Source of the DNA: Bacteroidales bacterium
Lineage (GTDB): Bacteria; Bacteroidota; Bacteroidia; Bacteroidales; VadinHA17
Reading direction: 5' to 3'
Assembly: GCA_017882245.1 (NCBI GenBank)
Contig: JADGPV010000202.1
Span: 1 to 34,546 of the forward strand
DNA: 34,546 nt
Under the pieces are notes generated by a model. The model was not told the origin of the DNA, searched no databases, and worked only from the letters and a program-made list of their open reading frames with translations. Position numbers and translations under genes: made by a program. Shown piece by piece: positions 1-13,641 of this stretch; position 1 is the first letter of the stretch; each line of letters opens with the position of its first letter.

Positions 1-2
1 CT

Positions 3-1898
3 GCGCTTACAGGTGAGTCTATGCTCATCAGCAAGAAAGAAGGTGATATGTTGTTCTCCGGATCTGTAGTAAAAAATGGGGAATGCAATGCAGTAGTGAC
101 AGCAACAGGCATTAATACTTTTTTTGGTAAAACAGTCCAGTTGGTTCAAATGGCTAAACCACGACTGCACATGGAAGAAGTTGTAGCTAATGTAGTGAAA
201 ATATTATTTTCACTTGTGCTTGTATTTGTTGGTATCACTTTTGCAATTTCTTTATTGAGGGGTGAAACCTTTTTATCCATGCTTCCTCTAGTGCTGATTT
301 TATTGGTAACTGCTGTTCCTGTGGCTATGCCAGCCATGTTTACCGTAAGTATGGCAAAAGGTTCACAGCAGTTAGCTGCCAAAGGAATTCTGATTAGTCG
401 GTTAAGTGCTACTGAAGATGCTGCAACACTAACTTCCCTGTGCATTGACAAGACAGGAACTATAACTCAAAATAAATTATCGGTACATGAAATAGAACCT
501 GCAGAAAATTTTACTGTCGACGATATTTTACGGTATGGTGTGCTGGCATCCGTAGCTGCCAATAAGGACCCGATTGATATGGCCTTTCTGCAAAGGGCGG
601 CAGATAATAAGACAGATACTTCTGGTTATACTCAAACTTCCTTCACTCCGTTTTCATCTGATACCAGAAGAACTGAAGCAATAGTACAAAAAGATGGCAA
701 ACAGTTTAAAGTAATGAAGGGTGCATATAATACTATCAAAGGTTTATGCAACCTGCAACAATCAAAACTTGATATGACTGTCGATGCCTGGGCGGCAAAA
801 GGATTCAAAACAATGGCTGTTGCGGTACAGAAAGATAATGTAACTTATCTGGCGGGCGTTGTTGCACTGGTTGACCCTCCGCTGACCGATTCTGCAAAGA
901 TGATTTCAGAAATAAAAGAATTGGGAGTTAAAGTAAAAATGCTCACGGGCGATGCGCTTCCTATTGCTAAGGAGATAGCTATTCAGGTAGGTGTGGGTGA
1001 TGATATCGTTGCTGCAGGTATGTTACGGGAATATCCACCGGGCAGTGATAGCCATTCAATAATTATTGCCCACAACGGATTTGCAGAAGTGTTACCGGAA
1101 GATAAATTTACCATCGTTAAAACCTTGCAGCAGTATCATGAAATTACCGGCATGACCGGTGATGGTGTTAACGATGCCCCGGCATTAAAACAGGCTGAAG
1201 TGGGGATAGCAGTTAAATCAGCTACCGATGCTGCTAAACAGGCTGCAAGTGTAATTTTACTTCATGAAGGGCTGGAAAGCATCATTAGCCTGATAACTGT
1301 TGGTCGAACAATACACCATCGTATAACCAATTGGGTAATAAGTAAAATTTCAAAAACATTGTTTACAGTGGCCTATGTATGTGCTGCTTATATAATTACC
1401 GGACAGTTCGTGGTTAGCGCTTTTGATATGGTTCTGTTATTATTTATTATTGATTTCGTAACATTGACATTATCTACCGATATTGTAAGCTGGTCAAAAA
1501 AGCCTGATAGTTGGAAAATAAAACCACTTGTAAAAGATGGTTTTATTTTAGGATTATTTTTGATTGCAGAGGCTTTAGTATGGCTATTTATCGGGAAGAA
1601 ATATTTTGAGCTTACTGACATTAACCAGTTGCATTCATTTGGGTTCGCTACTCTGTTTTTTGCCGGCATTTTCAATATATTTGTTGTACGCACACCTACC
1701 CGGTTTTATAGACAACCTATAGGTAAAAACTTACTACTGGCTATAATAGCAGATATAATTCTGGTCTGCTTTATTTTATCGTTGGGTTTACCGGGCTTCT
1801 CCATTTTGCCAATTGTCGTAACGGGTAGCAGTTTATTGTATTTTGCCTTCTGCAGTTTAATCATTAACGACTGGTTAAAAGTAAGATTGAAGTATTGA
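3..1898 (+). CDS. P-type ATPase, plasma-membrane H+-ATPase-like (type IIIA-like); 5' end lies outside the window
   Basis: The frame is open from nt 3 (ALTGES, with the TGES actuator motif at nt 9-20), so the listed Met at 21 is internal. DKTGT phosphorylation motif (CIDKTGTITQNKLSV, nt 447-461). Hinge motif MTGDGVNDAPALKQAEVGIAV. M4 motif VPVAMP. The M6 region IIDFVTLTLSTD...KPDSWK resembles plant/fungal AHA/Pma1 pumps as I recall them. Confidence 0.9.
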   Translation, partial: ALTGESMLISKKEGDMLFSGSVVKNGECNAVVTATGINTFFGKTVQLVQMAKPRLHMEEVVANVVKILFSLVLVFVGITFAISLLRGETFLSMLPLVLILLVTAVPVAMPAMFTVSMAKGSQQLAAKGILISRLSATEDAATLTSLCIDKTGTITQNKLSVHEIEPAENFTVDDILRYGVLASVAANKDPIDMAFLQRAADNKTDTSGYTQTSFTPFSSDTRRTEAIVQKDGKQFKVMKGAYNTIKGLCNLQQSKLDMTVDAWAAKGFKTMAVAVQKDNVTYLAGVVALVDPPLTDSAKMISEIKELGVKVKMLTGDALPIAKEIAIQVGVGDDIVAAGMLREYPPGSDSHSIIIAHNGFAEVLPEDKFTIVKTLQQYHEITGMTGDGVNDAPALKQAEVGIAVKSATDAAKQAASVILLHEGLESIISLITVGRTIHHRITNWVISKISKTLFTVAYVCAAYIITGQFVVSAFDMVLLLFIIDFVTLTLSTDIVSWSKKPDSWKIKPLVKDGFILGLFLIAEALVWLFIGKKYFELTDINQLHSFGFATLFFAGIFNIFVVRTPTRFYRQPIGKNLLLAIIADIILVCFILSLGLPGFSILPIVVTGSSLLYFAFCSLIINDWLKVRLKY

Positions 1899-2034
1899 CA
1901 CATTCCTCAAATAATATTTTACTTAGCCAGAACTACTATATGATTTGTAAATGGTTGATTTGTTATCTTATTAATGACGTTTAATACAGCTTTTGATGGT
2001 TAATATGATCTGGCCAAGTATGCATGACGATTAT

Positions 2035-2042
2035 TATCTTTG
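2035..2042 (+). promoter_or_regulatory. candidate Bacteroidetes -7 promoter box (TATCTTTG, fits TAnnTTTG)
   Basis: Matches the Bacteroidetes sigma-A -7 consensus TAnnTTTG, 57 nt upstream of the ATG at 2099. No well-spaced -33 TTTG was seen. Confidence 0.3.
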
Positions 2043-2098
2043 CTTATCGTGAGGCCGGCTTGAATATTTTATTCTTCAGTAATATTAGTTTGACAAAA

Positions 2099-2581
2099 AT
2101 GCTGAAACTTTTTATGTTGCCAATAATCATGTTCTTACAGCAGGAGCACATGACAATGACTACTATTGAGAATGTGCCAGGTACTGATTCATTGAAGGTT
2201 CTGATAAATTATAATTTTTACGAATTTCTAAAGGATTACCAGCAAACCTTAAATGATGACATAGATATTGATATATTTCGCAGTCGCAAGCCATTTCCAT
2301 CTGACCTTGCAAATAATTATATCAATTCAAAGATTTCAATTGATGTAAACGGAAAACCTCTTCTCGGGAAATTGTTGAAAATGGAGAAATCAGGTGAAAA
2401 CATAAACCTATTTGTCCTTTTCAGACTTAAAAAGGAAATCAGAACTCTAAAAGTAAGCAATACAATACTGATGGGTTTGCATTCGAATATTGAAAATCTG
2501 ACAATTCTTAGAATTAATGATTTTGAGAAAGAGATTAAATTTACACAGCAACATCCTGAGGAGACATTCTCATTTAAATGA
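2099..2581 (+). CDS. secreted hypothetical protein, DUF6702-like; paralogue of 4259-4738
   Basis: The ORF track starts at 2024, but the Met at 2099 gives MLKLFMLPIIMFLQQEHMTMTTIE, which parallels MLKILILNILLAFHPIHVTLTSID of the 4259 gene. That start gives the same length class (160 vs 159 aa). Shared blocks: H-x-T-x-T-x-I, G-x-D-x-LKV, FL-x-DY, N-x-K-x-L-x-x-KL and a late EN...L.IN block. The family assignment is from memory of DUF6702 sequences. Confidence 0.55.
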   Translation: MLKLFMLPIIMFLQQEHMTMTTIENVPGTDSLKVLINYNFYEFLKDYQQTLNDDIDIDIFRSRKPFPSDLANNYINSKISIDVNGKPLLGKLLKMEKSGENINLFVLFRLKKEIRTLKVSNTILMGLHSNIENLTILRINDFEKEIKFTQQHPEETFSFK

Positions 2582-2674
2582 AAGATAATTTCTATATGAG
2601 AATAATTTATTTATTCTCCAGCATAAAAGCTTTGCTGCATTGAATTTCAGGTTGTCTGAGCATGGAAATGAAGA

Positions 2675-2716
2675 TCATAAGCACTATCATTCACATTATG
2701 TATTTCATAAGCACTA
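2675..2716. repeat. perfect 12-bp direct repeat TCATAAGCACTA x2 (2675-2686 and 2705-2716), 30 bp apart
   Basis: Read directly from the sequence. It lies in the 163-bp gap upstream of the 2745 gene and is flanked by AGATCAT heptamers at 2672-2678 and 2724-2730. Confidence 0.6.
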
Positions 2717-2744
2717 AATTATCAGATCATTAAACTCACTGTCA

Positions 2745-4229
2745 ATGAAAAAAATCGAAATATCTCTTGGTTTATTATTCCTGACGGCAGTGGTATGGTC
2801 ACAACCCCGACCCGTAAAATTAAGCGGCAATATTATAATTGATACGGACTGCGGTTTTGATGACTTCAGAGCTGTAAGCCTGTTGCTGTCCAGACCTGAA
2901 ATCAAAATCAAAGGGATACTAACAACGGATGGTTCATTGCCACCTTCCGAAGGACTTATAAAAGTGACTTCTTTGCTCAAAGAATTTAATAGGGATGATA
3001 TACCAGTTGCATGCGGAGAATCATCCAAGACAATAAATCCTGCATGGCGAACATTTAACAGAAGCTATACGTGGGGCAGGCAAAATATCGACTTTAAACC
3101 TGAAATGAGCACAACAGATTTAATTTTCAAAATCTTAAAATCTGAAAAAGAAAAAATTACATTGGTTTGTCTTGGTCCGTTAACAAATATTGAAAAAGGA
3201 TTAAAGGCTGATCCGCAAATCGCTTCAAAAATTGAACGGATTATATGGTACAATGAATCAGTCAAACCTGCACAGGGATTCAATTACGAATGTGATAAAG
3301 AGAGTGCAAATTCGCTTTTGAAATCCGGTTTAAGGATTGATGTAATTTCAAATCTCAATATTGAAGATGCAAAATTCGATACCACAATTTTAAATGTATG
3401 TAATCATTCTGGTAGTGAAATTGCCAGGATACTTTCCATTGTTTTTAATCAGAATACGGTAAAGAAATCTCTTTATGATGGACATTTCGTTTTAGCTGAC
3501 GAACTTGTAACTGTATACATCACTAATCCGGAATTATTCAATATCAATGCCGAAACAGACAGATTAAATATAAGATTCAACAAAGACTTTGAAATTAACG
3601 CAGTCAAGGAAGTAATTATTGATATGATAAAGGGTAACTATACATCAGAACGCAACATAGTATTCAACAGGTTTCCCATTAACCGTGAGGTTTTTAATTA
3701 TGATATCCGGCCAATAATTGACACCACACTTGCTCTTTATGGACCAGATGAATGGAAAGCCAATGTTATGACGGACGAATTTCATGGGCATCTTGGAGTA
3801 TTTTCAATAGTTGGCGCAAAGATGGGCATTAAAGCAAGAGAAATATTTGGAGCAGGACCGGACATGCTGGAAGTAGTTACCTTTGCAGGATCAAAACCGC
3901 CATACAGCTGCCTTACAGATGGCATACAGGTAAGTACCGGTGCGACACTTGGAATGGGAACAATACATCTTGCAAAAAGTAAGAAGATAAGTCCGACAGC
4001 TGTGTTTACATATAATAACTGCTCTATAAAAATAAGCCTCAAACAGGAATATCTTGACAGAGTTGATGCGGATATTAAAGAAGGTATTTCGAAATTTGGA
4101 TTAATGGACGATGGCTATTGGAAACTTATCAGGCACAATGCATTGAAATACTGGATGGAATGGGACAGAAATAAAATCTTTGATATTGAGGAATTACCTT
4201 CAAAGAAACAGGTTCGTATCAAAAATTGA
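2745..4229 (+). CDS. secreted two-domain protein: N-terminal inosine/uridine-preferring nucleoside hydrolase-like domain fused to a C-terminal FmdE-like domain
   Basis: N-terminal signal peptide (MKKIEISLGLLFLTAVVWSQ). IUNH aspartate cluster IIIDTDCGFDD (nt 2841-2864). The C-terminal third carries FmdE-family signatures: FHGHLGVFSIVGAKMG (from nt 3780) and C-LTDGIQVSTGATLGMG. Confidence 0.75.
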   Translation: MKKIEISLGLLFLTAVVWSQPRPVKLSGNIIIDTDCGFDDFRAVSLLLSRPEIKIKGILTTDGSLPPSEGLIKVTSLLKEFNRDDIPVACGESSKTINPAWRTFNRSYTWGRQNIDFKPEMSTTDLIFKILKSEKEKITLVCLGPLTNIEKGLKADPQIASKIERIIWYNESVKPAQGFNYECDKESANSLLKSGLRIDVISNLNIEDAKFDTTILNVCNHSGSEIARILSIVFNQNTVKKSLYDGHFVLADELVTVYITNPELFNINAETDRLNIRFNKDFEINAVKEVIIDMIKGNYTSERNIVFNRFPINREVFNYDIRPIIDTTLALYGPDEWKANVMTDEFHGHLGVFSIVGAKMGIKAREIFGAGPDMLEVVTFAGSKPPYSCLTDGIQVSTGATLGMGTIHLAKSKKISPTAVFTYNNCSIKISLKQEYLDRVDADIKEGISKFGLMDDGYWKLIRHNALKYWMEWDRNKIFDIEELPSKKQVRIKN

Positions 4230-4258
4230 AATAGTGAAAATTACACAATCAAAAATCA

Positions 4259-4738
4259 ATGCTGAAAATTCTGATCTTAAATATCCTTCTTGCGTTTCAT
4301 CCGATTCATGTGACCCTGACAAGTATCGATCAGTCCCGGGGAAATGATACGCTGAAGGTCTTTTTCAGAATGTATTATGATGATTTTCTGAGAGATTACA
4401 GATTGTTCAAACAGGAGTCAGGTTTCAAGGAAACGACAAATTCAGAAGAGATACCTGATCAAATGTTAAATGAATATTTTGATGACAGAGTAAGGATCTA
4501 TATTAACAAAAAAATACTAACTAGTAAGTTAATTTCGGTTTCAAATGACGGTTATGAAATCTGTTTGAGTCTGATTTATAAATCGAATAAAGATCCCGGC
4601 AAACTTAAAATTAGGAACAGTGTCTTAATTAAGATTTACAGCGATCAGGAGAACATGATCTACCTAAATATCAACAATTATCAGGATGCGGTAAAGCTAA
4701 CCCCAAAATCAAATGTTGAGACACGAAATCTTAGATAA
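4259..4738 (+). CDS. secreted hypothetical protein, DUF6702-like; paralogue of 2099-2581
   Basis: Hydrophobic N-terminus followed by HPIHVTLTSID. Collinear similarity to the 2099 gene. Starts 29 nt after the 2745-4229 gene, so probably co-transcribed with it. Confidence 0.6.
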   Translation: MLKILILNILLAFHPIHVTLTSIDQSRGNDTLKVFFRMYYDDFLRDYRLFKQESGFKETTNSEEIPDQMLNEYFDDRVRIYINKKILTSKLISVSNDGYEICLSLIYKSNKDPGKLKIRNSVLIKIYSDQENMIYLNINNYQDAVKLTPKSNVETRNLR

Positions 4739-4849
4739 ATAGCAAATAAGAAAAAACTCGCTCTTTCCGGAAATTCTCTTATGCCGCCCCTTTGTGTCCA
4801 GACGTAAAGCTCAAGTCATAATAAACTTGACTTTGGCTTTTTGCTGGCG

Positions 4850-4857
4850 TAACTTTG
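4850..4857 (+). promoter_or_regulatory. candidate -7 promoter box TAACTTTG
   Basis: TAnnTTTG match 24 nt upstream of the ATG at 4881. TTTG motifs lie upstream but not at the canonical spacing. Confidence 0.3.
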
Positions 4858-4880
4858 ATTAACCAACCCCCCTTTCAGCT

Positions 4881-5474
4881 ATGAAAAATATTCTAATACG
4901 TGCCATAATTTTGATTTTTATATCATTACAGGCTAATGGACAACAATTGCAAGATACCTTGTTTCTGAAGAATGGGTATAAAGCAGTTGGGAAATTGCTC
5001 GGGCAGTCAAAGACAGAATACAGGTTTAGGTCATCAGATGGAATATACTTCATCTTTTCTCCAGATGAGGTAGAAAAAATCGTTACCACCCCGGAAATGA
5101 TAATGAGGAAAGTCAATCCTGATACATTGAATACCGACCTTCTTAATCTGTATAGGCAAAAAGCTGTTAAAATGAGAAATACGGGGAGGGCTTTAACATT
5201 AAGTGGTGCCGGTGTTATAGCAACAGGCATTGTTATTGGAATAATTTTCTGGAACATTCCAGGCGAACCGGGTGGAGACATGGATGGTCTTTTAGCTGCT
5301 TTTTATGTCATGGGTATCGGCGGTCTGGTTGGTATTCCCTGTGCTGCAGCTGGCATTCCGTTATGGGCAGTCGGAGGCAGCAGAAAGACTAAAGCGGAGC
5401 TTAATTTGCAAAAGTTTAATATTGCGCCAGTGGGTTCAATGGCCGTTGGATTGGGAATAACAATAACGTTTTAA
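4881..5474 (+). CDS. hypothetical membrane protein (signal peptide, small soluble domain, Gly-rich transmembrane segments)
   Basis: MKNILIRAIILIFISLQANG signal-like N-terminus. DTLFLKNGYKAVGKLL beta-rich module. C-terminal hydrophobic Gly-rich helices (GAGVIATGIVIGIIFW, GIGGLVGIPCAAAGIPLWAV). No recognisable catalytic motif. Confidence 0.55.
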   Translation: MKNILIRAIILIFISLQANGQQLQDTLFLKNGYKAVGKLLGQSKTEYRFRSSDGIYFIFSPDEVEKIVTTPEMIMRKVNPDTLNTDLLNLYRQKAVKMRNTGRALTLSGAGVIATGIVIGIIFWNIPGEPGGDMDGLLAAFYVMGIGGLVGIPCAAAGIPLWAVGGSRKTKAELNLQKFNIAPVGSMAVGLGITITF

Positions 5475-5515
5475 TCTGATATTGAACAATTTATTACCAG
5501 CCTTCGGTATCAAAT

Positions 5516-5607
5516 ATGAAAAACCCGGGATTTGTTCCCGGGCTTTCTACGCTCAACGCTCTCCACTCATATCTCGATTGTAGCCCCACTAAGAGAATTA
5601 TCGAACC
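5516..5607. repeat. degenerate copy of the tRNA-Arg 3' end plus its downstream terminator (counterpart at about 7945-8022)
   Basis: The sequence gaaaaacccgggatttgttcccgggcttt...ctctccactcatat...tgtagccccactaagagaattatcgaacc aligns by eye with aaaaagcccgggctgttcccccgagct...ttctccgaatcatatgtagccccactaggaatcgaacc. TGTAGCCCCACTA is identical in both copies. Confidence 0.6.
5524..5542. terminator. hairpin CCCGGGA-tttgt-TCCCGGG (perfect 7-bp stem)
   Basis: Lies 50 nt after the stop of 4881-5474. It is followed by CTTTC on the + strand and by TTTTTC on the - strand. It belongs to the duplicated tRNA-terminator unit. Confidence 0.45.
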
Positions 5608-5711
5608 TTTTTTATGAGGATTTGCGGACCTGGTTATCATATCCTGATAATCAAAATCCTTTGGAAAAGAATATCAAATATTCAGTAACTAAAGGACATT
5701 ATCCTTAAAGT

Positions 5712-5738
5712 TAGATCATGAGATTATTGATAGATCAT
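5712..5738. repeat. direct repeat TAGATCAT x2 (5712-5719 and 5731-5738)
   Basis: Read directly from the sequence, about 85-105 nt upstream of the ATG at 5820. The AGATCAT core also brackets the repeat upstream of the 2745 gene. Confidence 0.5.
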
Positions 5739-5819
5739 TCAGGTCAATATTAAAATTGATATCTTGCATCTGGATAAGGATTGATATGCTTCAATAAAAA
5801 GATACAAAATAACATAGTA

Positions 5820-6956
5820 ATGATCCCTTTTAACAAACCTCTTCTCTCAGGGAGAGAGGTAGAATACATTATAGATGCTGTCAGATCCGGAAAAATATCA
5901 GGTAATGGGATATTCACTCAAAAATGTCAGGCTTTTTTTGAAAATAAATATGGCTTAAAGAAATGCCTTCTAACCACTTCTTGTACTGATGCACTTGAGA
6001 TGTGCGCAATGCTCGCCGACCTGAAGTCAGGGGATGAAGTAATAGTTCCATCTTTTGCTTATGTTTCTACAGCTCTTGCATTTGTCCGTCAGGGTGCAAA
6101 GATAGTATTTGCTGACAGCCGCAAGGACCATCCCGGAATTGATGAGGATAAAATAGAACTACTTATTAGCCCTGCTACAAAAGCAATAGTTCCGGTCCAT
6201 TACGCTGGTGTTTCATGCGATATGGATAAGATAATGGCTCTTTCTAAAAAGTATAACCTTATTGTTATTGAAGATGCGGCTCAATCTGTTGATTCGTATT
6301 ACAAAAGCAGACCGCTGGGAAGCATCGGACATCTGGCAACTTTTTCATTTCATGAAACAAAAAACATAATTTCGGGTGAAGGAGGGTTGCTGGTGATAAA
6401 TGATGACCAATATATTAATCGCTCGAAAATCATCTGGGAAAAAGGAACTAACCGTGCTGAATTTTTGAAAGGTGAGGTCGATAAATACGAATGGGTTGAT
6501 ATAGGTTCCTCTTTCCTCCCTTCGGAAATCACCTCCGCATATCTCTGGGCACAACTTGAGAGTATTGATCAGATTCAGGAAAAACGAAAGCATATCTGGA
6601 ATTTATATTACACAGAATTAATCGACTGGGCTGAAAAAAACACTATTAAGCTACCAGAAATACCCTCTTATGCAACAAATAACGGACATATGTTCTACAT
6701 CGTCTGCAACGATCATGATCAAAGATTATATCTAACGGAGAAACTTAAAAAAAGTGATATACTTGCCGTTTTTCATTACCAGAGTCTTCACAAAAGCAAA
6801 TATTATAAAGATAAGCATGATGGCAGACCGCTTCCTTTTTCAGACTATTATTCAGATTGTCTATTAAGGCTTCCCTTTTATTTTGAGCTGGAGGATTCTG
6901 ACGTAAAACGGATATGTTCAGTACTAAAAAGTGTATTCAATGACAATGGGAAGTAA
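5820..6956 (+). CDS. wecE: dTDP-4-amino-4,6-dideoxy-sugar transaminase (WecE/RffA-type, DegT family, PLP-dependent)
   Basis: From the Met at 5820 the protein reads MIPFNKPLLSGREVEYIIDAVRSGKISGNG. It is collinear with E. coli WecE as I recall it: PSFAYVSTA, GAKIVFAD, VPVHYAG, IEDAAQ, FSFHETKN (PLP lysine), EKGTNR, DKYEWVDIGSS, AYLWAQLE, HMFYI, FHYQSLH. The TTG at 5781 in the ORF track adds 13 non-homologous residues. Confidence 0.85.
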   Translation: MIPFNKPLLSGREVEYIIDAVRSGKISGNGIFTQKCQAFFENKYGLKKCLLTTSCTDALEMCAMLADLKSGDEVIVPSFAYVSTALAFVRQGAKIVFADSRKDHPGIDEDKIELLISPATKAIVPVHYAGVSCDMDKIMALSKKYNLIVIEDAAQSVDSYYKSRPLGSIGHLATFSFHETKNIISGEGGLLVINDDQYINRSKIIWEKGTNRAEFLKGEVDKYEWVDIGSSFLPSEITSAYLWAQLESIDQIQEKRKHIWNLYYTELIDWAEKNTIKLPEIPSYATNNGHMFYIVCNDHDQRLYLTEKLKKSDILAVFHYQSLHKSKYYKDKHDGRPLPFSDYYSDCLLRLPFYFELEDSDVKRICSVLKSVFNDNGK

Positions 6957-7053
6957 AAAAATATTACAAAAAACCTCCTTTATAATTGACATCCGGTAAG
7001 TACATAAGGTGTAAAGAGGTGAATAGAAATTAAAGAATTATTTAGAAACTAAA

Positions 7054-7896
7054 ATGTCCAAGGTAATTGCTTTTGGAACAAATAAACAAGCGTTTTATGA
7101 TTTATTCATAGAATCTTGCCGGCGTTATAATATTGAACCAGTAATTTTAGGCTGGGGTGAAAAATGGATTGGTTTTGGGAGAAAATCAATGATGATTCGT
7201 GAATATATAAAATGCCTGCCTGAAGACGAAATTGTAATTTCAGTCGATCCATTCGATGTTATTTTTTTATGTGGACTTAATGAAATAGAAAACAAGTTTA
7301 ATAAGATACCCACATCTTTCCTATGTGGCGCACTTAGGTTGAATAAATTTAATGGAGCGATTTATAATTATGAATTTAACAAAACCGATAAGCGACTCCC
7401 GGAAACACCAACTAATTATAACTTCCTTAATACAGGTACTTGGATATCTAGAGCCGGCTATGCCAGTTACCTCATTGACGAACTTGTTAATAAATATCAT
7501 ATGAGAGAAACTTCTATGGATCAGCAACTAATAACTGGCATCTACATTCATAATTCGTACAAGGTAGATATCGACTGGAATTGCGAAATTTTTCATAATC
7601 TCCTTTTTAAAGATTTTATCACACGCAAACCCGATCTTAAGGATTTGGAATTTAATACTAATAGAATTATAAATACTGCTTCAGGTTCGAAGCCTTGCGT
7701 TCTTCACGCTTCAGGTAACACAAACATGAAAGTACTTGCCTTGAAGCTTGGATATGATCAAAATATTGTTGTTCCGGTAAATAACACAGTAAACTTTACA
7801 AAAAAGACCATTTTCCATATTTGTCAGATCCTGAAACCTTCTAGGTCCTCTCATCTACTACGCAGCCATAGCTCCAGCAGGGCATCCTGTTTGTAG
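7054..7896 (+). CDS. putative GT-A fold glycosyltransferase (PLOD/LH3-like nucleotide-sugar transferase pattern)
   Basis: Motif order SVDPFDVIF (DxD-like), FLNTGTWISRAGY, MDQQLITGIY, IDWNCEIFHNL, PCVLHASGNT mirrors the lysyl-hydroxylase-type glycosyltransferase domain as I remember it. The last 20 or so residues (PSRSSHLLRSHSSSRASCL) are low complexity. Confidence 0.5.
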   Translation: MSKVIAFGTNKQAFYDLFIESCRRYNIEPVILGWGEKWIGFGRKSMMIREYIKCLPEDEIVISVDPFDVIFLCGLNEIENKFNKIPTSFLCGALRLNKFNGAIYNYEFNKTDKRLPETPTNYNFLNTGTWISRAGYASYLIDELVNKYHMRETSMDQQLITGIYIHNSYKVDIDWNCEIFHNLLFKDFITRKPDLKDLEFNTNRIINTASGSKPCVLHASGNTNMKVLALKLGYDQNIVVPVNNTVNFTKKTIFHICQILKPSRSSHLLRSHSSSRASCL

Positions 7897-7921
7897 CATC
7901 AGTGATTAATACAATGATTTT

Positions 7922-7946
7922 TAGCCCCGTAGGAGTGACCTGAAAT
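7922..7946. repeat. third, more decayed fragment resembling the tRNA-Arg 3' end
   Basis: tagccccgtaggagtgacctgaaat compared with tagccccactaggaatcgaacctaaat (8001-8027). It sits directly beside the terminator hairpin. Confidence 0.35.
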
Positions 7947-7974
7947 AAAAAAGCCCGGGCTGTTCCCCCGAGCT
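7944..7974 (-). terminator. rho-independent terminator of tRNA-Arg
   Basis: The minus strand reads agctcggggg-aacag-cccgggct followed by TTTTTT. That is about 7 bp of stem with one mismatch, roughly 27 nt past the tRNA 3' end. Confidence 0.6.
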
Positions 7975-8000
7975 CCATGCACCATTCTCCGAATCATATG

Positions 8001-8072
8001 TAGCCCCACTAGGAATCGAACCTAAATTTCAGGTTTAGGAAACCCGCGTTCTATCCATTGAACTATAGGGCC
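8001..8072 (-). tRNA. tRNA-Arg (anticodon CCT)
   Basis: The minus strand folds by hand as GGCCCTA-TA-GTTC-AATGGATA-GAAC-G-CGGGT-TTCCTAA-ACCTG-AAAT-TTAGG-TTCGATT-CCTAG-TGGGGCT-A. All four arms pair (with G-U wobbles), the T-loop is GGTTCGATTCC and the anticodon is CCT in a 7-nt loop. CCA is not encoded. Confidence 0.9.
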
Positions 8073-8118
8073 GTGTTTGCAGCCGCAAATGTAACCCTTT
8101 TTTTACTCACTGCAAAAA

Positions 8119-8742
8119 TCAGCAGCCGCCAGCAGGCTTCTTCTTGGCCTTTGACGCAACAGCAGGCTTGGCAGCCTTAGGTGCCGTTGCAGCGCCTTCG
8201 GCAGCGACAACCCCGCCTCCGCCCAGGGCAGCCGAGGCACTCTTACGGAAGTCATACTTTGCAAACTCCTCATTGGGACTCGTCTGCGAGGGAGCCTGTG
8301 CCGAAAGTATGTTACCGAACCAGTAATTCAGTCCGCCTTCGAGGACAAAATTGTTCTTATAGCCCATCTGCCTGGTCAGCATCCATGCTTCATTTGCAGT
8401 GACTGAGCCGTTTGAATAGAAGACGTTCGTCCGGGCATCCTGATTTAAAATATCTGTAAACTCATCTGATAACAGGTTGCTGAGGGGGATGTTTATTGCC
8501 CCCGGCAGGCTGAAGGCCTCAAACTCTTCAGGTGTACGAACATCAATCAGCTGCAACGACGGGTCCTTCTGAACCAGCATGTCAGCAATGACATCTGGCG
8601 AGATGAACTGTGCACCGGCCCCTGCCTCCTGAAGCAGCTCATCGGCGGAAAGCCTGAAGCGCTTTGTCTTATCTGCCGGTACAGCAGCAAGGATAATCCC
8701 AAGAGGGATAATGATGAGAGCTAATAATTTTAATGGTTTCAT
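8119..8742 (-). CDS. exported rhodanese-like protein lacking the active-site loop Cys, with a low-complexity C-terminal arm ending in GGC
   Basis: Signal/anchor MKPLKLLALIIIPLGIILAAVPA. Rhodanese blocks LIDVRTPEEFEAFSLPGAINIPL and LEGGLNYW. The loop position reads VFYSNGSVTAN (Ser instead of Cys). The tail is GGGGVVAAEGAATAPKAAKPAVASKAKKKPAGGC. Confidence 0.85.
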   Translation of the reverse strand: MKPLKLLALIIIPLGIILAAVPADKTKRFRLSADELLQEAGAGAQFISPDVIADMLVQKDPSLQLIDVRTPEEFEAFSLPGAINIPLSNLLSDEFTDILNQDARTNVFYSNGSVTANEAWMLTRQMGYKNNFVLEGGLNYWFGNILSAQAPSQTSPNEEFAKYDFRKSASAALGGGGVVAAEGAATAPKAAKPAVASKAKKKPAGGC

Positions 8743-8760
8743 AATTTTATGTTTTTTGTT

Positions 8761-9351
8761 TTAATACTCTTCTCTCGGGAATTTTCTTTCTGCCCATTCA
8801 GCCACGGCAAACATTCCAAGTGCTACAAGTATAAGCAACAGGCCAAAGAGCCCGTCTTTCATGCCAAGCGATTGGCTTATCTTTGGTTCGCCGAGATATT
8901 TTGCCATGTACATTTTTTCCCACAACGGGTACGTAAAGGCAAAAGCGTAGATACCAATGAAGAGGCCCAGAATGAAAACCATTCCGTCAATCTTTCCTAT
9001 TGCTGCTCCGGTGAAGCTGGTCCCCGGACAGAAGCCGCCCATAATAAACCCTGCTCCCATCACTACGCCGCCTACGATGGCAGAAGTCAGGTAGGTGGGA
9101 TTGACATATACCAGGTCAAGGTCTATCCATCCGAACAGGCTCATGAACAAAAGTCCGATCATGCATGTGATTGCTCCTGTGAAGAAGACCTTGAGAACGA
9201 CGGTGTCATAGCCGTAAAAGATGCCGGCCAGTTTGCGGCTCGACGAGAAGCCAGAGCTCTCAAGAACCCACCCGAAGGCGATGCCGATGAAGAATGCAAG
9301 GAGAAAATTGGTGTTCTCCGATATAATTCCGTTTGGTGCTAATGGTCCCAT
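8761..9351 (-). CDS. YeeE/YedE family sulfur-compound transport membrane protein (half-size, second of a pair)
   Basis: Polytopic Gly-rich membrane protein with a GGFCPGTS motif. The start is set at the Met at 9351 (MGPLAPNG), which is preceded by an aggagaa RBS-like sequence and avoids overlap with the upstream gene. The ORF track start at 9405 would overlap that gene by 38 nt. Confidence 0.8.
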   Translation of the reverse strand: MGPLAPNGIISENTNFLLAFFIGIAFGWVLESSGFSSSRKLAGIFYGYDTVVLKVFFTGAITCMIGLLFMSLFGWIDLDLVYVNPTYLTSAIVGGVVMGAGFIMGGFCPGTSFTGAAIGKIDGMVFILGLFIGIYAFAFTYPLWEKMYMAKYLGEPKISQSLGMKDGLFGLLLILVALGMFAVAEWAERKFPREEY

Positions 9352-9367
9352 TTTATTCTCCTTTCCT

Positions 9368-9904
9368 TTAGATCCAGTTTTTCCTGAAGAAGTAAGCCAG
9401 TGCATAGGCTGTTCCGAAAATCCCCATCATGGTAATGAAGCCTCCGAGAGACAGCACTCCCATACCGCTCAGTGCCGCACCGCTGGTGCATCCGCGTCCG
9501 AGCTGTGAGCCGAAGCCAAAGAGTGTCCCTCCGATCAGGGCGAAGACCAGTCTTCGTCTGGAGGTTATCTTCGGCGAATGCTCCACTTTCAGCTTCAGAC
9601 GACCGGCAATCGCACCGGATATGAAACCTCCGACGAGTACGCCCAGCATTTCAAAGACGAGCCACGATCTCATCGGGCTTCCGCTGTGTGACTGGGCATA
9701 TTCAGCCATGAACGGCATCGTATTGACAGCATTCTTATTGACAGCCTCAATGGATGTGGCCACGACACTCTTTATGGCGCCGCTGGCTCCGAGACCCCTG
9801 CCTGCAATGAAATTGGCAGCAAGAAGTACGAGGCCAAGAAGAACCCCTCCCAGATACGGGTTGAGGTATTTTTTGCTCCTCTCAGTTTTAGAAATATTGC
9901 CCAT
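9368..9904 (-). CDS. YeeE/YedE family sulfur-compound transport membrane protein (half-size, first of a pair)
   Basis: N-terminus YLNPYLGGVLLGLVLLAANFIAGRGLGASGA and a conserved GRGCTSGA motif, both typical of the sulfur-transport domain. 178 aa, about half of E. coli YeeE. Confidence 0.8.
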   Translation of the reverse strand: MGNISKTERSKKYLNPYLGGVLLGLVLLAANFIAGRGLGASGAIKSVVATSIEAVNKNAVNTMPFMAEYAQSHSGSPMRSWLVFEMLGVLVGGFISGAIAGRLKLKVEHSPKITSRRRLVFALIGGTLFGFGSQLGRGCTSGAALSGMGVLSLGGFITMMGIFGTAYALAYFFRKNWI

Positions 9905-9924
9905 ATTGTTATTATTTATAGTGA

Positions 9925-10866
9925 TCAGTATAACCAGCGGCTCACCTGGCCGGCAAAGACAAAAACAAATCTGAACATCAGGCTCCCGAAAATAACCAGT
10001 GCGCCTGGTATCACTGCGGGTATATGGAGTCCGCGCAATTCCATAAGGTCAAGTATGCCTGGAAGAATTATTCCGATTATAACAACAAAGATCCAGAACA
10101 CCATGGTATATTGTCCGCCGAGGAAGAGCTGTGCAGCATCTATCTGCACCTGCGTACTTGCCAGGAAGCCCATGAACATATGCACTATCAGAAATAGCTC
10201 CACTCCAAGAATGATAAGATCGATCTTTGAGAAGGCAAGTCTCTCTTTCCTGTCTTTTGATGCCAGCACTATCGCTGCAGCCCCTGCTGAGAGTCCTGAA
10301 GCAAGGAACAGTGGCCCGAGAACAGAGGTGTTCCATAAGGGCCTGGCGTTGAATGCCGAAAGTAATATACCGGTATAAACGCCGGTGATGATAGCATAGA
10401 TCAGCATCACCCAGGCAAGTACTTTTTTGTATTTGTTGAAGAAAGTCTCAAGATCTTTCAGCCATTGATACTTCCAGTCCCAGCGCGGGAACAGTTCTCT
10501 GATATTAAGTGCACACCATATCACCGATACTGCCGTGATCACCAGCAGTGTCCAGGCACCCCATGACATAGGTGACTCCAGCCTGACGGTTGTATAGAGC
10601 CGCCAGAAGAAGGCCTTGTGATTCAGGTCATAAAAGAGGGCAGCAAGGCCGATTATCAGTGCTATGGGAGCAACGAATGGAACCCTGCGCACGGCAGAGC
10701 GGTATTCATCCTCCTTGCCAAGGAGATAGAACAGCGCAGCAAAGAACAGCACACCTGCCGCCAGTCCTCCGAGAAAGAGATACAGCGGTATGGGCCAGTG
10801 CCATATATGCAGTTGCGGGTCAACCATCAGGTTTTCTCTTCCGCTGATTATAAGCTCTTCGTTCAT
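9925..10866 (-). CDS. nrfD: NrfD/PsrC-family integral membrane quinol-interacting subunit
   Basis: About 8 predicted helices. The N-terminal W-x-W-P-I-P-L-Y-L-F-L-G-G-L-A-A-G signature is typical of NrfD/PsrC. It lies directly downstream of the 4Fe-4S subunit gene. Confidence 0.85.
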   Translation of the reverse strand: MNEELIISGRENLMVDPQLHIWHWPIPLYLFLGGLAAGVLFFAALFYLLGKEDEYRSAVRRVPFVAPIALIIGLAALFYDLNHKAFFWRLYTTVRLESPMSWGAWTLLVITAVSVIWCALNIRELFPRWDWKYQWLKDLETFFNKYKKVLAWVMLIYAIITGVYTGILLSAFNARPLWNTSVLGPLFLASGLSAGAAAIVLASKDRKERLAFSKIDLIILGVELFLIVHMFMGFLASTQVQIDAAQLFLGGQYTMVFWIFVVIIGIILPGILDLMELRGLHIPAVIPGALVIFGSLMFRFVFVFAGQVSRWLY

Positions 10867-10873
10867 TGTCTGC

Positions 10874-11407
10874 TCATATTAGGAAATATAACTGCGGTTG
10901 CGTCCCTGCTTCGGGGATGAGTGTCTTTGACTTGCGCTTCTTCAGTATGACGCTCACGTCACTGTTAGGATCCTCAAGGTCGCCGAAGTACATACATTTG
11001 GTAGGACATACGGCAACACATGCGGGTTTCATCCCTTCCTTCACACGGTGATGGCAGAATGTACATTTGTCGACATATCCTTTCGGATGGGGGTAACGTG
11101 CATCATACGGGCAGGAGGCTATGCAGGCGCCGCAGCCGATGCATTTGTTGTGTGTGACAAGGACAATTCCGCCCTCTGCGAAATGGCTTGCCCCAGTGGG
11201 GCAGCACCTTACACATGGTGAGTTTGCACAATGATTGCAGCGTTCTGACCTCAGCTCAACCTCAAGCTGCGGATATGTGCCATCCATTGTCTCCACAACC
11301 CAGTCGCGGCAGTAGCCTATGGGTACGTCGTTCTCCGTCTGGCATGCCACCACACAGTCGGAGCAACCAACACATTTTTTTGTATCAACAGCCATCGCGT
11401 ATCTCAT
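10874..11407 (-). CDS. 4Fe-4S ferredoxin-type electron-transfer subunit (PsrB/PhsB-like)
   Basis: Four Cys clusters: CVGCSDCVVAC, CNHCANSPCVRCCP, CIGCGACIASCP and CTFCHHR...ACVAVCP. The start overlaps the upstream stop by 4 nt (ATGA). Confidence 0.9.
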   Translation of the reverse strand: MRYAMAVDTKKCVGCSDCVVACQTENDVPIGYCRDWVVETMDGTYPQLEVELRSERCNHCANSPCVRCCPTGASHFAEGGIVLVTHNKCIGCGACIASCPYDARYPHPKGYVDKCTFCHHRVKEGMKPACVAVCPTKCMYFGDLEDPNSDVSVILKKRKSKTLIPEAGTQPQLYFLI

Positions 11408-13641
11408 GACGTCACCTCCTTTCTTTCAAGATCAGTAATGAAAGTCACGAAGTTGCCTCTCATGCCGGTCCCTCCCATTACTGGATCCATCATGACACTG
11501 GTTATCAGTTTAGTATCATTTGCACCCCGACCATAAGTCCTGGTCAGTTTTTTGTCTGCATGACCAAATCCGTGCACCATATACACTGAATCCCATCTTA
11601 TCCTTTCCGTGATTCTCACTTTGATCGGGAAGTCAGTCTCAATGCCATCCTGATTTTTAAGATGGATATACTGTCCTGCAGTCAATCCCCATTCCCTTGC
11701 CACTCTTGGATTGACCCACAGAGTGTTCTCATCCATCAGGTCAAAGAGATTAGGATTGTTGGAGGTGCGGCTGAAGGTGTGCATAGGAGCCCGTCCGTAA
11801 ATGAGCCTGTAAAAGCCCTCGGGCGGCTCGGGATGAGGTGTATAAACCGGAAGCGGGCTGAAACCTTCATTTTCAAGCGCTGTGGAATAAAGCTCAATTT
11901 TGCCGGTATTGGTCCAGAAGGCGATGTCTTCACCTTCACCGAAGTACAGGTCATCAACTTCTCTGTCCCATGTTTTTACTCCTGCTTTCTGCATCTCATC
12001 AAGTGAGCTCCCCATCTGTTTCAGCTGCCAATCCAGAAGTTCCTCCGGTTTTTCAAAGTGGAAGTACTCTCCCTTGCCTAATCTCTGGGCGAGTTCGCGT
12101 GCTATCCAGTAAGCAGGTTTTGAGTCATATTTCGGCTCGACAGCAGGTACTCGCAGAGCTAATGCCGGTTTACGGTGAGGACTGTCTCTCAGCGAGTCAT
12201 AGCGTTCGAGATATGTACATTCAGGCAAGACCACATCAGCCCATCCGGTAATTTCCATCGGCATTGTATCAACTACAACCAGGAGATCAAGATTTTGCAT
12301 CGCCTCAATGGTATGTGCAGTATTCGGAACTGTCAACGGCAGGTTTGTCCCTGATACCAGCCATCCTTTTATCATCGCATCCTTTTCAGGGGCAGGGATG
12401 CTTGCATCAATAATCACATTTGCCACTCCAAGGTCAGCAAGATTATACTTGCCCGGGTACCATTCACGCCATGATTTCTGAGGTTTTGGATACTCCGGGT
12501 GCGGATAAGACGGGACAGTTTTTCCTTCCTGTCTGTAGAAGCCTCCGCGGCGCCCCCATGATCCGAGAAGGGCGTTCAGAATTGCCACCGCCCTTGTACG
12601 TTGTGTGTCGTCTCCATACCAGGTTACATGACGGCCCGGATGAACAATGACTGCCGGTGAGGCATCAGCCATCTCCCGGGCAGTCTCCCTGATAACAACA
12701 GGATTAATAGTAGTTATTCCATAAGCCCACTCAGGGGTGAAGTTCCTGACATGCTCCTTCAGCTCGTCAAAGCCATAGCAGTATTTTTCAACATATTTTT
12801 TATCGTAGTAATCATTGTAAATTATCTCATGGATCCATGCAAGTAAAAGGGCAATGTCAGTAGCAGGCTTTATCGGGAGCCAGTACTTCGACTTGCCGGC
12901 TGCCGTTGAAAAGCGGGGATCAACAGTGATAATAGTGGCGCCTTTATCAATGGCATCAGACATCTCCTGCACCTGTCCGTTATGCATGTTCTCGCCAATA
13001 TGTGATCCTATAAGAACAAGACAGCGTGTGTCGCGTATGTCAGTATTCTCAGGTGAACCCGGATTCTCTCCGAAAGTGGCTGAGAAACCAACATCACGCG
13101 GTCCGCGGCACTGGGCGAATGATGGCTGGGCATAATTTTCAGATCCCAACGACTTCATAAGATCTGTGAAGTATTTTCCGCCTGAGCCATGGTTCAACAA
13201 TGCAAGGCTTTCAGGACCGTTCTTTTCAATTATCTCCTTCATTTTGCCCGCAATATGATCAAGGGCTTCCTCCCATGAGGCTTCCCTGAAAACCTGCTTT
13301 CCGCGCTCCTCAACTCTTATCAATGGCACCTTCAGCCTGTCTTCGTCATAATACATCCCGGGACCGCCTGTACCACGTGGACAGAACCGGCCGTTGCTGT
13401 GCTGATCTTCTTTATTTCCGGTGATCTTTTTGATGTTTCCTTCGTCATCTTTCCAGACCCAGCCGGCACACTTCCAGAAACAGACCTCACAATAAGTAGG
13501 AGTGCGTGTTGCCAGAACCGCCGCAGTGGCTTTCTGGCCGTCAGTGAACTCAGACCCTAAAAGCCTGAAACCTGCCGCACCTGCCATCACTGCTCCAGCT
13601 CCCATTGCTGAGATTCTGATGAACTGTCTGCGTGTTGCCAT
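11404..13641 (-). CDS. Tat-exported molybdopterin (bis-MGD) oxidoreductase catalytic subunit, polysulfide/thiosulfate reductase-like (PsrA/PhsA-like)
   Basis: Twin-arginine signal MATRRQFIRISAMGAGAVMAGAAG. N-terminal FeS motif C-EV-C-FWK-C...C-PRG. At 745 aa its size and layout fit the Psr/Phs branch. The substrate is inferred from the neighbouring sulfur genes only. Confidence 0.85.
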   Translation of the reverse strand: MATRRQFIRISAMGAGAVMAGAAGFRLLGSEFTDGQKATAAVLATRTPTYCEVCFWKCAGWVWKDDEGNIKKITGNKEDQHSNGRFCPRGTGGPGMYYDEDRLKVPLIRVEERGKQVFREASWEEALDHIAGKMKEIIEKNGPESLALLNHGSGGKYFTDLMKSLGSENYAQPSFAQCRGPRDVGFSATFGENPGSPENTDIRDTRCLVLIGSHIGENMHNGQVQEMSDAIDKGATIITVDPRFSTAAGKSKYWLPIKPATDIALLLAWIHEIIYNDYYDKKYVEKYCYGFDELKEHVRNFTPEWAYGITTINPVVIRETAREMADASPAVIVHPGRHVTWYGDDTQRTRAVAILNALLGSWGRRGGFYRQEGKTVPSYPHPEYPKPQKSWREWYPGKYNLADLGVANVIIDASIPAPEKDAMIKGWLVSGTNLPLTVPNTAHTIEAMQNLDLLVVVDTMPMEITGWADVVLPECTYLERYDSLRDSPHRKPALALRVPAVEPKYDSKPAYWIARELAQRLGKGEYFHFEKPEELLDWQLKQMGSSLDEMQKAGVKTWDREVDDLYFGEGEDIAFWTNTGKIELYSTALENEGFSPLPVYTPHPEPPEGFYRLIYGRAPMHTFSRTSNNPNLFDLMDENTLWVNPRVAREWGLTAGQYIHLKNQDGIETDFPIKVRITERIRWDSVYMVHGFGHADKKLTRTYGRGANDTKLITSVMMDPVMGGTGMRGNFVTFITDLERKEVTS

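Follow-up and report, generated by a model that had tools for sequence, protein, structure and literature searches.

Fusions of a nucleoside hydrolase-like domain with FmdE, and the DUF6702 proteins encoded beside them, as probable periplasmic accessories of nickel acquisition in uncultured Bacteroidales

Contig JADGPV010000202.1 of the Bacteroidales assembly GCA_017882245.1 (VadinHA17 lineage), referred to below as the window and analysed over its full 34,546 nt, carries at positions 2099-4738 three co-oriented genes, which the listing of open reading frames (ORFs) and a Pfam scan identify as a DUF6702 gene (DUF6702-A), a gene for an IU_nuc_hydro+FmdE fusion protein and a second DUF6702 gene (DUF6702-B; Table 1). 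A sequence-only reading of this DNA had described the same three ORFs and had taken the outer two for diverged paralogues. Both descriptions hold: the ORFs are confirmed, and the two DUF6702 proteins, 28% identical to each other, both match PF20420 (47.1 bits for A and 69.5 bits for B; cut-off 24). That reading went on to regard the trio as a self-contained module with no described function, which has to be revised on both counts. In related genomes the fusion gene, and often the DUF6702 genes too, belong to NikR-controlled nickel-uptake operons, and DUF6702 has a published metal-binding biochemistry (PMC12537917).

Table 1 Features of the trio and of its upstream neighbour (window positions)
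Feature	Position	Strand	Remarks
DUF6702-A paralogue	2099..2581	+	160 aa; PF20420, E 3e-12; leader MLKLFMLPIIMFLQQE, followed by His17 (codon 2147-2149)
Spacer between DUF6702-A and fusion gene	2582..2744		163 bp; read from the sequence
Fusion, exported two-domain protein	2745..4229	+	494 aa; signal peptide, IUNH-type N-ribohydrolase domain, conserved linker, FmdE core domain
Predicted signal peptide of fusion	2745..2801	+	aa 1-19, MKKIEISLGLLFLTAVVWS; uncharged h-region of 14 residues
IU_nuc_hydro domain	2832..3554	+	aa 30-270; Pfam E 1e-32; D33, D35, D39, D40, N180, D252
FmdE core domain	3780..4184	+	aa 346-480; Pfam E 1.4e-14
FmdE metal-site remnant	H347 3783-3785, H349 3789-3791, C389 3909-3911	+	placed by alignment to 2gvi
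DUF6702-B paralogue	4259..4738	+	159 aa; PF20420, E 4e-19; leader MLKILILNILLAF, followed by His14-Pro-Ile-His17 (4298-4309)
Helix motif D41-D42-F-L-R-D46 of DUF6702-B	4379-4396	+	conserved
P-type ATPase, type IIIA (H+-ATPase-like)	21..1898	+	TIGR01647; 5' end cut by the window start; recurring neighbour, not a proven part

For DUF6702-A a longer ORF from an ATG at 2024 is also available; the start at 2099 is preferred because its Met-Leu-Lys is conserved in all orthologues from related loci (38/38). An AT-rich hairpin (GAGAATAA/TTATTCTC, 2598-2618) lies in the spacer that separates DUF6702-A from the fusion gene, as does a direct repeat of 12 bp (TCATAAGCACTA; 2675-2686, 2705-2716). L001, the closest relative, lacks this spacer and has a 15-bp gap instead; the spacer could be an inserted promoter, operator or small element.

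Scanning one genome per species, we found 188 carriers of the fusion and retrieved 80 loci; the stretches from related genomes are labelled L001-L088. The carriers are essentially all metagenome-assembled genomes of uncultured Bacteroidales or Bacteroidota from fens, soils, lakes and digesters. ORFs were called in the loci, the fusion and DUF6702 were located with hidden Markov models, and neighbours within 6 kb were clustered. A check of synteny shows that the trio does recur in other genomes: both paralogues, or a single copy in a few cases, adjoin the fusion gene in about 21 of the 80 species-level loci, either in the order A-fusion-B or as fusion-B followed by a convergent A. Orthologues of DUF6702-A lie upstream of the fusion gene, or convergent to it, in 16 other loci, and a search starting from homologues of DUF6702-B found the fusion gene adjacent on three of four long contigs. 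L087 shows the same order A-fusion-B as the window, beside a system of extracytoplasmic function sigma factor, FecR and TonB-dependent receptor (TBDR). The paralogue pair can also exist alone, since L086 (8001-9117) carries a convergent B/A pair and, within 8 kb, no fusion gene.

The genes that recur around the fusion, named after Pfam and NCBIfam, encode a TBDR, NikR, CbiM, an N component with a PDGLE domain, CbiQ, a His-tailed ATPase of the energy-coupling factor (ECF) type and a DsbD_2 protein with a His-rich loop. The NikR neighbour scores above the cut-off of its NCBIfam equivalog, and the S, T and A components are CbiM, CbiQ and CbiO by NCBIfam name. In 62 of 79 loci the fusion gene shares a co-directional run with one or more genes for NikR, TBDR, CbiM/PDGLE/CbiQ/CbiO, a UreH-like His-rich permease or DUF6702; NikR, CbiM, PDGLE, CbiQ or CbiO are each found in 18-23 loci and the TBDR in 20. 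Typical gene orders are NikR-CbiM-PDGLE-CbiQ-CbiO-fusion, NikR-TBDR-fusion, fusion-CbiM-PDGLE-CbiQ-CbiO and TBDR-fusion-His-rich permease. Six loci (L015, L016, L020, L036, L037, L050) unite importer and trio genes in the order NikR-CbiM-PDGLE-CbiQ-(CbiO)-fusion-DUF6702-(DUF6702). In L082 and L053, NikR and TBDR genes are followed by the fusion and an ATP-binding cassette (ABC) system with a FecB-class binding protein. L088 begins with a leftward P-type ATPase gene, continues rightward with NikR, TBDR, fusion and DUF6702, and ends with a second DUF6702, a standalone FmdE and a TauE gene, all leftward. In a survey published in 2009, Nik/Cbi ECF systems were almost absent from the 30 genomes of Bacteroidetes then available (PMC2667541).

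Some details of these neighbourhoods deserve mention in their own right. The ECF ATPase of the nik operons has a His-rich tail (HEHIHKHEGDEHKHYHSHYVFHKH) and the DsbD_2 protein a His-rich loop (HSHVHYHTGEGMHEHVHTHENNHDHIH; L035 9179-9988, plus strand; L075 11461-12177, plus strand); the latter, for which NCBIfam holds no model, is encoded directly after the fusion in 12-14 loci. In about 11 loci without nikR, the fusion gene has a HisKA/HATPase_c sensor kinase gene as its immediate neighbour (for example L085, 4954-6150; also L013, L043, L048, L006), and this kinase may be an alternative regulator of stand-alone fusion copies. Neighbours encoding an S46 peptidase, a metallo-beta-lactamase fold protein, Ldh_2, Maf, GH88 and a methyltransferase were set aside as conserved synteny of related genomes, functionally unsuggestive.

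A de novo dyad search of the upstream regions yielded GTGTTAC-N13/14-GTAACAC over an AT-rich background, the same motif as the NikR box published for delta-proteobacteria (PMC545781). Allowing up to one mismatch, 18 sites were found against a mean of 0.25 in shuffled sequences, and with up to two mismatches 37 sites against 6-14. The boxes precede either nikR, the TBDR gene or the fusion gene itself. Seven loci have a box no more than 115 bp in front of the fusion gene: L032 and L066 (no mismatch), L054 and L055 (one), and L044, L045 and L072 (two).

In an exhaustive search covering 1.84 billion cluster representatives, the fusion matched 264 clusters (clustering at 50% identity, E<=1e-30), with full-length matches to about 30% identity, and more than 980 homologues with the same two domains are found at 90% clustering. 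Conservation was assessed in a 30-sequence alignment and over 130 divergent family representatives. Gln20, directly behind the hydrophobic leader, is invariant in the 30 homologues; for this reason, and since signal peptidase I cleavage in Bacteroidetes usually exposes a Gln (the "Q-rule", as given in the accessible part of PMC5837995), the signal peptide is probably cleaved before Gln20.

The assignment of the C-terminal half to FmdE, which the sequence-only reading had made from motifs, is borne out by PF02663 (54.7 bits, cut-off 22.9, full profile 1-133) and by a phmmer match to the solved FmdE protein 2gvi. In the motif FHGHLG (aa 346-351) and beyond, H347, H349 and C389 map to three of the four zinc ligands of 2gvi, with Gly351 in the place of the fourth, Cys20. 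The departure from the canonical FHGHxC motif, already noticed as HGHLGVF instead of HGH-x-CPG, is real, as Gly occupies this position in 129 of the 130 representatives. The second motif (C389, D392, Q395, T401), which aligns with Cys61 of 2gvi and the residues following it, is kept. H347, H349 and C389 are at least 99% conserved, the most conserved positions of this half being H347, H349, G351, C389, D392 and Q395, and the FmdE half as a whole is more conserved than the hydrolase half. The connection with methanogens to which the earlier reading alluded resides in the family name only, and a link to methanogenesis was rejected: neither the window nor the 80 loci were found to contain fmd or fwd genes. 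Nor does the fusion have a Cys cluster after residue 389; this cluster and the fmd/fwd association characterise only part of the FmdE family (PMC2954224). According to the same study, most FmdE family genes neighbour genes of metal-ion transporters, and the site ligands could be defined, with mixed Zn/Ni occupancy in one crystal (PMC2954224). Standalone FmdE-family genes are found beside the gene of a TauE-family membrane protein in L004 (19273-20718, minus strand) and L088 (9354-10745, minus strand), close to the fusion-DUF6702 module; the L004 copy carries a DksA/TraR-type zinc finger. These proteins are probably cytoplasmic, which hints at a cytoplasmic FmdE partner across the membrane from the fusion.

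The N-terminal half had likewise been recognised correctly as an IUNH-type nucleoside hydrolase domain. It matches IU_nuc_hydro (PF01156) with 114.4 bits against a cut-off of 34.2, and Foldseek searches with the AlphaFold2 (AF2) model, in which the predicted local distance difference test score (pLDDT) of this half is above 90, retrieved the nucleoside hydrolases RihA, YeiK and IU-NH (E 6e-17, TM-score TMt 0.72-0.77). Alignment to E. coli RihA (3g5i) places D33, D35, D39 and D40, within DTDCGFDD (aa 33-40), in the DxDxxxDD motif, and D252 at the C-terminal Ca-ligand Asp, Asp240 of RihA. Over the 130 representatives, D33, D35, D39, D40, N180 and D252 are conserved at 93-99%, and all but D33 count among the most conserved positions of this half. 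At the same time the fusion remains far below every specific equivalog of the group, with 36-81 bits for RihA, RihB, RihC and UriH against cut-offs of 382-459 (NCBIfam). The catalytic-acid position, 251, holds a Trp in 78 of the 130 representatives; aromatic residues serve leaving-group stacking in some purine nucleoside hydrolases.

Both DUF6702 proteins have His17 behind a 10-residue, uncharged hydrophobic leader stretch, a length within the range of signal-peptide h-regions and too short for a membrane anchor. The invariant His that had been pointed out behind the leader is therefore confirmed for both paralogues, and it is invariant in a 30-sequence alignment (A2). A metal-ligand role for this His, put forward before as conceivable, has gained support from the P. 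aeruginosa family member PaDUF6702, which binds Ni2+, Co2+ and Cu2+ via its N-terminal His with dissociation constants of 5.6 pM, 3.6 nM and 3.3 nM, respectively (PMC12537917, Nat Commun 2025). In that study, oxidase and peroxidase activity was not found, a beta-sandwich with a site of His1, His28 and His32 was modelled, and a role in metal sequestration or transport with hand-over to partner proteins was proposed. The AF2 model of DUF6702-B (pLDDT 89) is likewise a beta-sandwich, with strands 18-25 and 31-39, helices 40-54 and 67-77 and then seven strands, in agreement with the published Ig-like sandwich and its two helices between strands 2 and 3; leader residues 2-12 form a low-confidence helix and strand 1 starts at residue 18. 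Its best PDB matches by Foldseek (probability 1.0, TM 0.45-0.64) are ZrgA of Vibrio cholerae, PA4063 of P. aeruginosa and Ang-1, a domain of a HupE/UreJ protein, all periplasmic metal-binding accessories of metal importers (for ZrgA and PA4063, according to the accessible parts of the sources). We aligned the PaDUF6702 sequence (supplement of PMC12537917) by MAFFT with 38 A- and B-type proteins. Its His1 falls on His14 of the B copy in the window, with which the conserved H-P-[VI]-H begins, but the His28 column is Asp, and the His32 column Arg, Lys or Leu, in 33 of the 38 sequences. An equivalent of the published tri-His site in the window's subfamily was rejected on these grounds, and since His28 and His32 are not kept, His14 and/or His17 together with the acidic helix motif D41-D42-x-x-x-D46 are candidate metal ligands.

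Taking these lines together, we consider it likely, with a probability of roughly 0.6, that the trio supplies periplasmic accessory components of nickel acquisition in uncultured Bacteroidales of mostly anaerobic habitats. Since relatives carry them inside nickel-regulated nickel-import operons, the three genes most likely encode helper components of nickel uptake that had not been described before. The pair of DUF6702 beta-sandwich proteins, exported by the Sec route, would serve as small shuttles for nickel, a role suggested by the picomolar Ni2+ binding of PaDUF6702 and by the fold resemblance to ZrgA and PA4063. The FmdE domain of the fusion may hold Ni2+ at a three-ligand His2Cys site with one coordination position open, an arrangement that would suit the hand-over of metal between outer-membrane receptor and inner-membrane importer. 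The module could then work between the TBDR and interchangeable importers, be they ECF systems, the His-rich DsbD_2 permease or the FecB-class ABC system. The contribution of the N-ribohydrolase-like domain is the least certain step: it would most likely bind or cleave a ribose-containing ligand (a chelate or cofactor fragment) that accompanies nickel in the periplasm, and it is the strict conservation of the Ca/ribose core that suggests that the domain still binds, and possibly cleaves, a riboside. A more specific scheme appears doubtful to us. In it, a ribose-containing nickel chelate would enter via the NikR-controlled TBDR and be cleaved in the periplasm by the exported, Ca2+-dependent hydrolase domain, with Ni2+ released onto the FmdE His2Cys site and passed via the DUF6702 pair to NikMN or the His-rich permease; the chelate might be a nucleoside-like "nickelophore" or a discarded nickel cofactor, for example a nickel-pincer-nucleotide-type compound.

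Several observations weigh against the nickel interpretation. We know of no nickel-linked riboside, and RihA Asn39, Glu166 and His239, which we take to be the substrate and catalytic residues of group I enzymes, correspond to Ser64, Gly178 and Ala251 in the window's fusion. The AF2 model has low confidence for the FmdE half and the linker, and the fold search re-identified the hydrolase domain alone. The DUF6702 leaders, 13-16 residues long, lack a classic A-x-A site, and positions -1 and -3 before His17 are not classic signal peptidase I residues, so that exposure of His17, or of His14 upstream of it in the B copy, at the mature N-terminus is no more than putative; moreover, the metal preference may differ from that of PaDUF6702 because His28 and His32 are Asp and Arg/Lys here. 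The best fold matches of DUF6702-B, ZrgA and PA4063, are zinc proteins, and the published FmdE crystals held mostly zinc (PMC2954224). About 17 of the 79 loci have no metal-related neighbour. Trio-only relatives (L001, L003, L004, L006, L085-L087) have neither nik genes nor a NikR box, and the window resembles them in that its ORF listing contains no nikR, nikMNQO or TBDR gene. A search of the window for NikR boxes at up to three mismatches gave only chance-level hits inside coding regions, and none in the spacer between DUF6702-A and the fusion gene; direct NikR control of the window copy is for this reason not claimed. Given that it is stand-alone and without a box, its regulation and exact metal are extrapolated from the orthologues.

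Among the alternatives, the one that survives best sees in the IUNH-like domain a non-catalytic scaffold or binding domain and in the fusion only a metallochaperone or docking adaptor leading from the TBDR to the inner-membrane importer. The substitutions at the RihA Asn39, Glu166 and His239 positions speak for it, as does the lack of a known nickel riboside, and the three importer classes (ECF, His-rich permease, FecB-type ABC) suit an adaptor placed upstream of import. On the other hand, the Ca2+-ligand set and Asn180 are near-invariant over distances of about 30% identity, which would be difficult to account for if no ribose- or Ca-dependent function existed, and the Trp found at the catalytic-acid position in most representatives is of the aromatic type used elsewhere for leaving-group stacking. 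We regard this explanation as possible, if somewhat unlikely.

Zinc handling, or non-specific buffering of divalent metals in the periplasm, would apply at least to trio-only loci such as the window, with the nickel context elsewhere reflecting recruitment of a general chaperone. The zinc-binding fold relatives of DUF6702-B and the mainly Zn-occupied FmdE core sites in crystals agree with this view, as do the replacement of two of the three published His ligands by Asp and Arg/Lys, the missing NikR box in the window and the Nramp and MgtE genes paired with the fusion in some loci. However, no Zur, ZnuABC or other zinc-specific gene was seen near the fusion in the 80 loci; NikR is the regulator that recurs, in several species with a box immediately in front of the fusion gene, and PaDUF6702 prefers nickel over Co and Cu by about three orders of magnitude. 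These points make a zinc or general buffering role unlikely.

Salvage of cobalt or cobamides would make the CbiMNQO-type importer a cobalt transporter and have the hydrolase domain act on the cobamide nucleotide loop, an alpha-ribazole-type riboside, delivered via the TBDR. The NCBIfam names CbiM, CbiQ and CbiO, the binding of Co by PaDUF6702 at nanomolar affinity and weak scores of the TBDR to BtuB models, far below their cut-offs, can be quoted in its favour, and cobamides are the best-known metal cofactors with an N-riboside. Against it stand the NikR equivalog with its canonical boxes, the absence of a cobalamin riboswitch from six nik-type loci and the window, the lack of cobalamin biosynthesis or remodelling genes in the fusion neighbourhoods and the N component, which is of the PDGLE type and not CbiN, the cobalt-specific component (PMC2667541). 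It is the NikR equivalog, the PDGLE-type N component and the missing vitamin B12 riboswitch that argue for nickel rather than cobalt, and the cobalt reading was rejected as very unlikely. Still less probable is a plain periplasmic nucleoside hydrolase scavenging ribose and bases amid coincidental neighbours, which would fit the retained Ca/ribose-binding core and the label "pyrimidine-specific ribonucleoside hydrolase" given to fusion homologues by pipelines of the Joint Genome Institute, but is contradicted by scores of 81 and 78 bits against cut-offs of 433 (RihA) and 382 (RihC), by the replaced counterparts of RihA Asn39, Glu166 and His239, by the FmdE half being the more conserved one, and by the recurrence of nickel genes in most of the 79 independent species, where no nucleoside transporter or catabolic genes recur near the fusion.

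As to the surroundings of the trio in the window, the truncated P-type ATPase gene upstream has close relatives at other fusion loci. Its product is 87% identical to the ATPase of L088 (1333-3735, minus strand), which is divergent from nikR there, and the gene is 78% identical at the DNA level to that of L029 (about 7477-9371, minus strand), divergent from the fusion gene; since window, L088 and L029 each differ, the adjacency recurs in three arrangements. A 197-aa membrane protein encoded downstream (4881-5474) lies beside the trio in no other locus and was not counted as a part. It is followed by genes for a WecE-type dTDP-4-amino-4,6-dideoxy-sugar transaminase and a PLOD-type glycosyltransferase (5781-7896, plus strand). 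The segment with the trio (1-7990) has a GC content of 36.7%, similar to the 36-41% in the loci of trio relatives, against 47.7% in the remaining 26 kb from 8080 to the end, and the step coincides exactly with a tRNA-Arg(CCT) gene (8000-8072, minus strand). Integration of a genomic island at the tRNA gene may account for the low-GC segment, as may a chimeric assembly; neither affects the trio. In the higher-GC part, an operon-like run unrelated to the trio (8119-13641, minus strand) resembles a polysulfide or thiosulfate reductase system, with genes for a molybdopterin oxidoreductase (11404-13641), a 4Fe-4S subunit (10874-11407), an NrfD-type membrane subunit (9925-10866), two Sulf_transp half-proteins (8761-9904) and a rhodanese-domain protein (8119-8742); a homologue of TMEM260-like protein O-mannosyltransferases with 1074 aa is encoded at 16990-20214 (minus strand).

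To our knowledge, no function has been assigned to FmdE since its naming in the 1990s, and its consistent presence in NikR-controlled operons leads to the testable hypothesis that it is a nickel-handling domain. The DUF6702 metal binders, which earlier had no physiological context, would become linked to a specific pathway, and abundant uncultured Bacteroidales of fens, soils and sediments appear to carry a dedicated route for nickel from the outer membrane to the cytoplasm, which bears on metabolism dependent on hydrogenases and other Ni enzymes in methanogenic environments. If the hydrolase domain is active, a ribosylated nickel carrier, and possibly a new class of metallophores, would be implied; cleavage of such a chelate, if true, would parallel, for nickel, the action of periplasmic siderophore hydrolases and provide the first defined biochemical role for FmdE.

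Nickel-uptake accessory proteins and metal binding by DUF6702 are already known. The IUNH-FmdE fusion as a member of the NikR regulon and its pairing with two DUF6702 paralogues are, as far as the searchable literature goes, not described; we know of no nickel accessory (NikK, NikL, NiuB, DUF4198) that has a nucleoside hydrolase-like or FmdE domain. The literature searched contained nothing linking FmdE or the fusion to NikR, nickel uptake or nucleoside hydrolases, and literature on periplasmic FmdE in Bacteroid- taxa yielded nothing on FmdE. As neighbours of DUF6702, PMC12537917 names only M1 peptidase and HAD_2 and does not report an IUNH-FmdE/nik context; a term search of its supplements gave no nucleoside hydrolase entry and a single FmdE entry (a zf-dskA_traR;FmdE neighbour, count 1).

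Each component of the trio can be set beside a characterised relative. The DUF6702 proteins share with PaDUF6702 the PF20420 domain, the beta-sandwich with two helices after strand 2 and a His directly behind a short export leader (PMC12537917), but the relationship of the window copies to it is distant. They have Asp and Arg/Lys at the positions of its modelled ligands His28 and His32 and an unusually short leader that is itself conserved, the B copy shows an H-P-x-H motif, and the genes form a diverged pair beside the fusion and nik genes. ZrgA and PA4063 are likewise small exported metal-binding accessories encoded beside a metal importer; they differ in being only about 10% identical to DUF6702-B, zinc-binding, Zur-controlled and equipped with metal sites in His-rich loops that are absent here. 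With 2gvi and its relatives (PMC2954224) the fusion has in common the FmdE Pfam domain with its F-H-G-H and C..D..Q..T motifs, whereas the window protein is exported, fused behind a hydrolase, free of a zinc finger and has Gly for the first Cys. The group I nucleoside hydrolases (RihA/YbeK, YeiK, Crithidia IU-NH) resemble its other half in fold (TMt up to 0.77), DxDxxxDD motif, C-terminal Ca-ligand Asp and ribose-pocket Asn, at 23-24% identity; they are cytoplasmic, whereas the fusion is exported, its hydrolase domain is always joined to FmdE, and RihA Asn39, Glu166 and His239 are replaced by Ser, Gly and Ala, the last being Trp in most family members. A functional parallel is offered by NikK (DUF4198) and NikL of the proteobacterial NikMQO systems, exported accessories encoded in or near NikR-regulated nikM(N)QO operons, in some cases as orphan genes with a NikR box of their own, and thought to capture periplasmic Ni (PMC545781, PMC2667541). 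DUF4198 also uses an N-terminal His, but neither NikK nor NikL is related in sequence or fold to the IUNH-FmdE fusion, and the operons described here, which belong to Bacteroidales, already possess an N-type (PDGLE) component.

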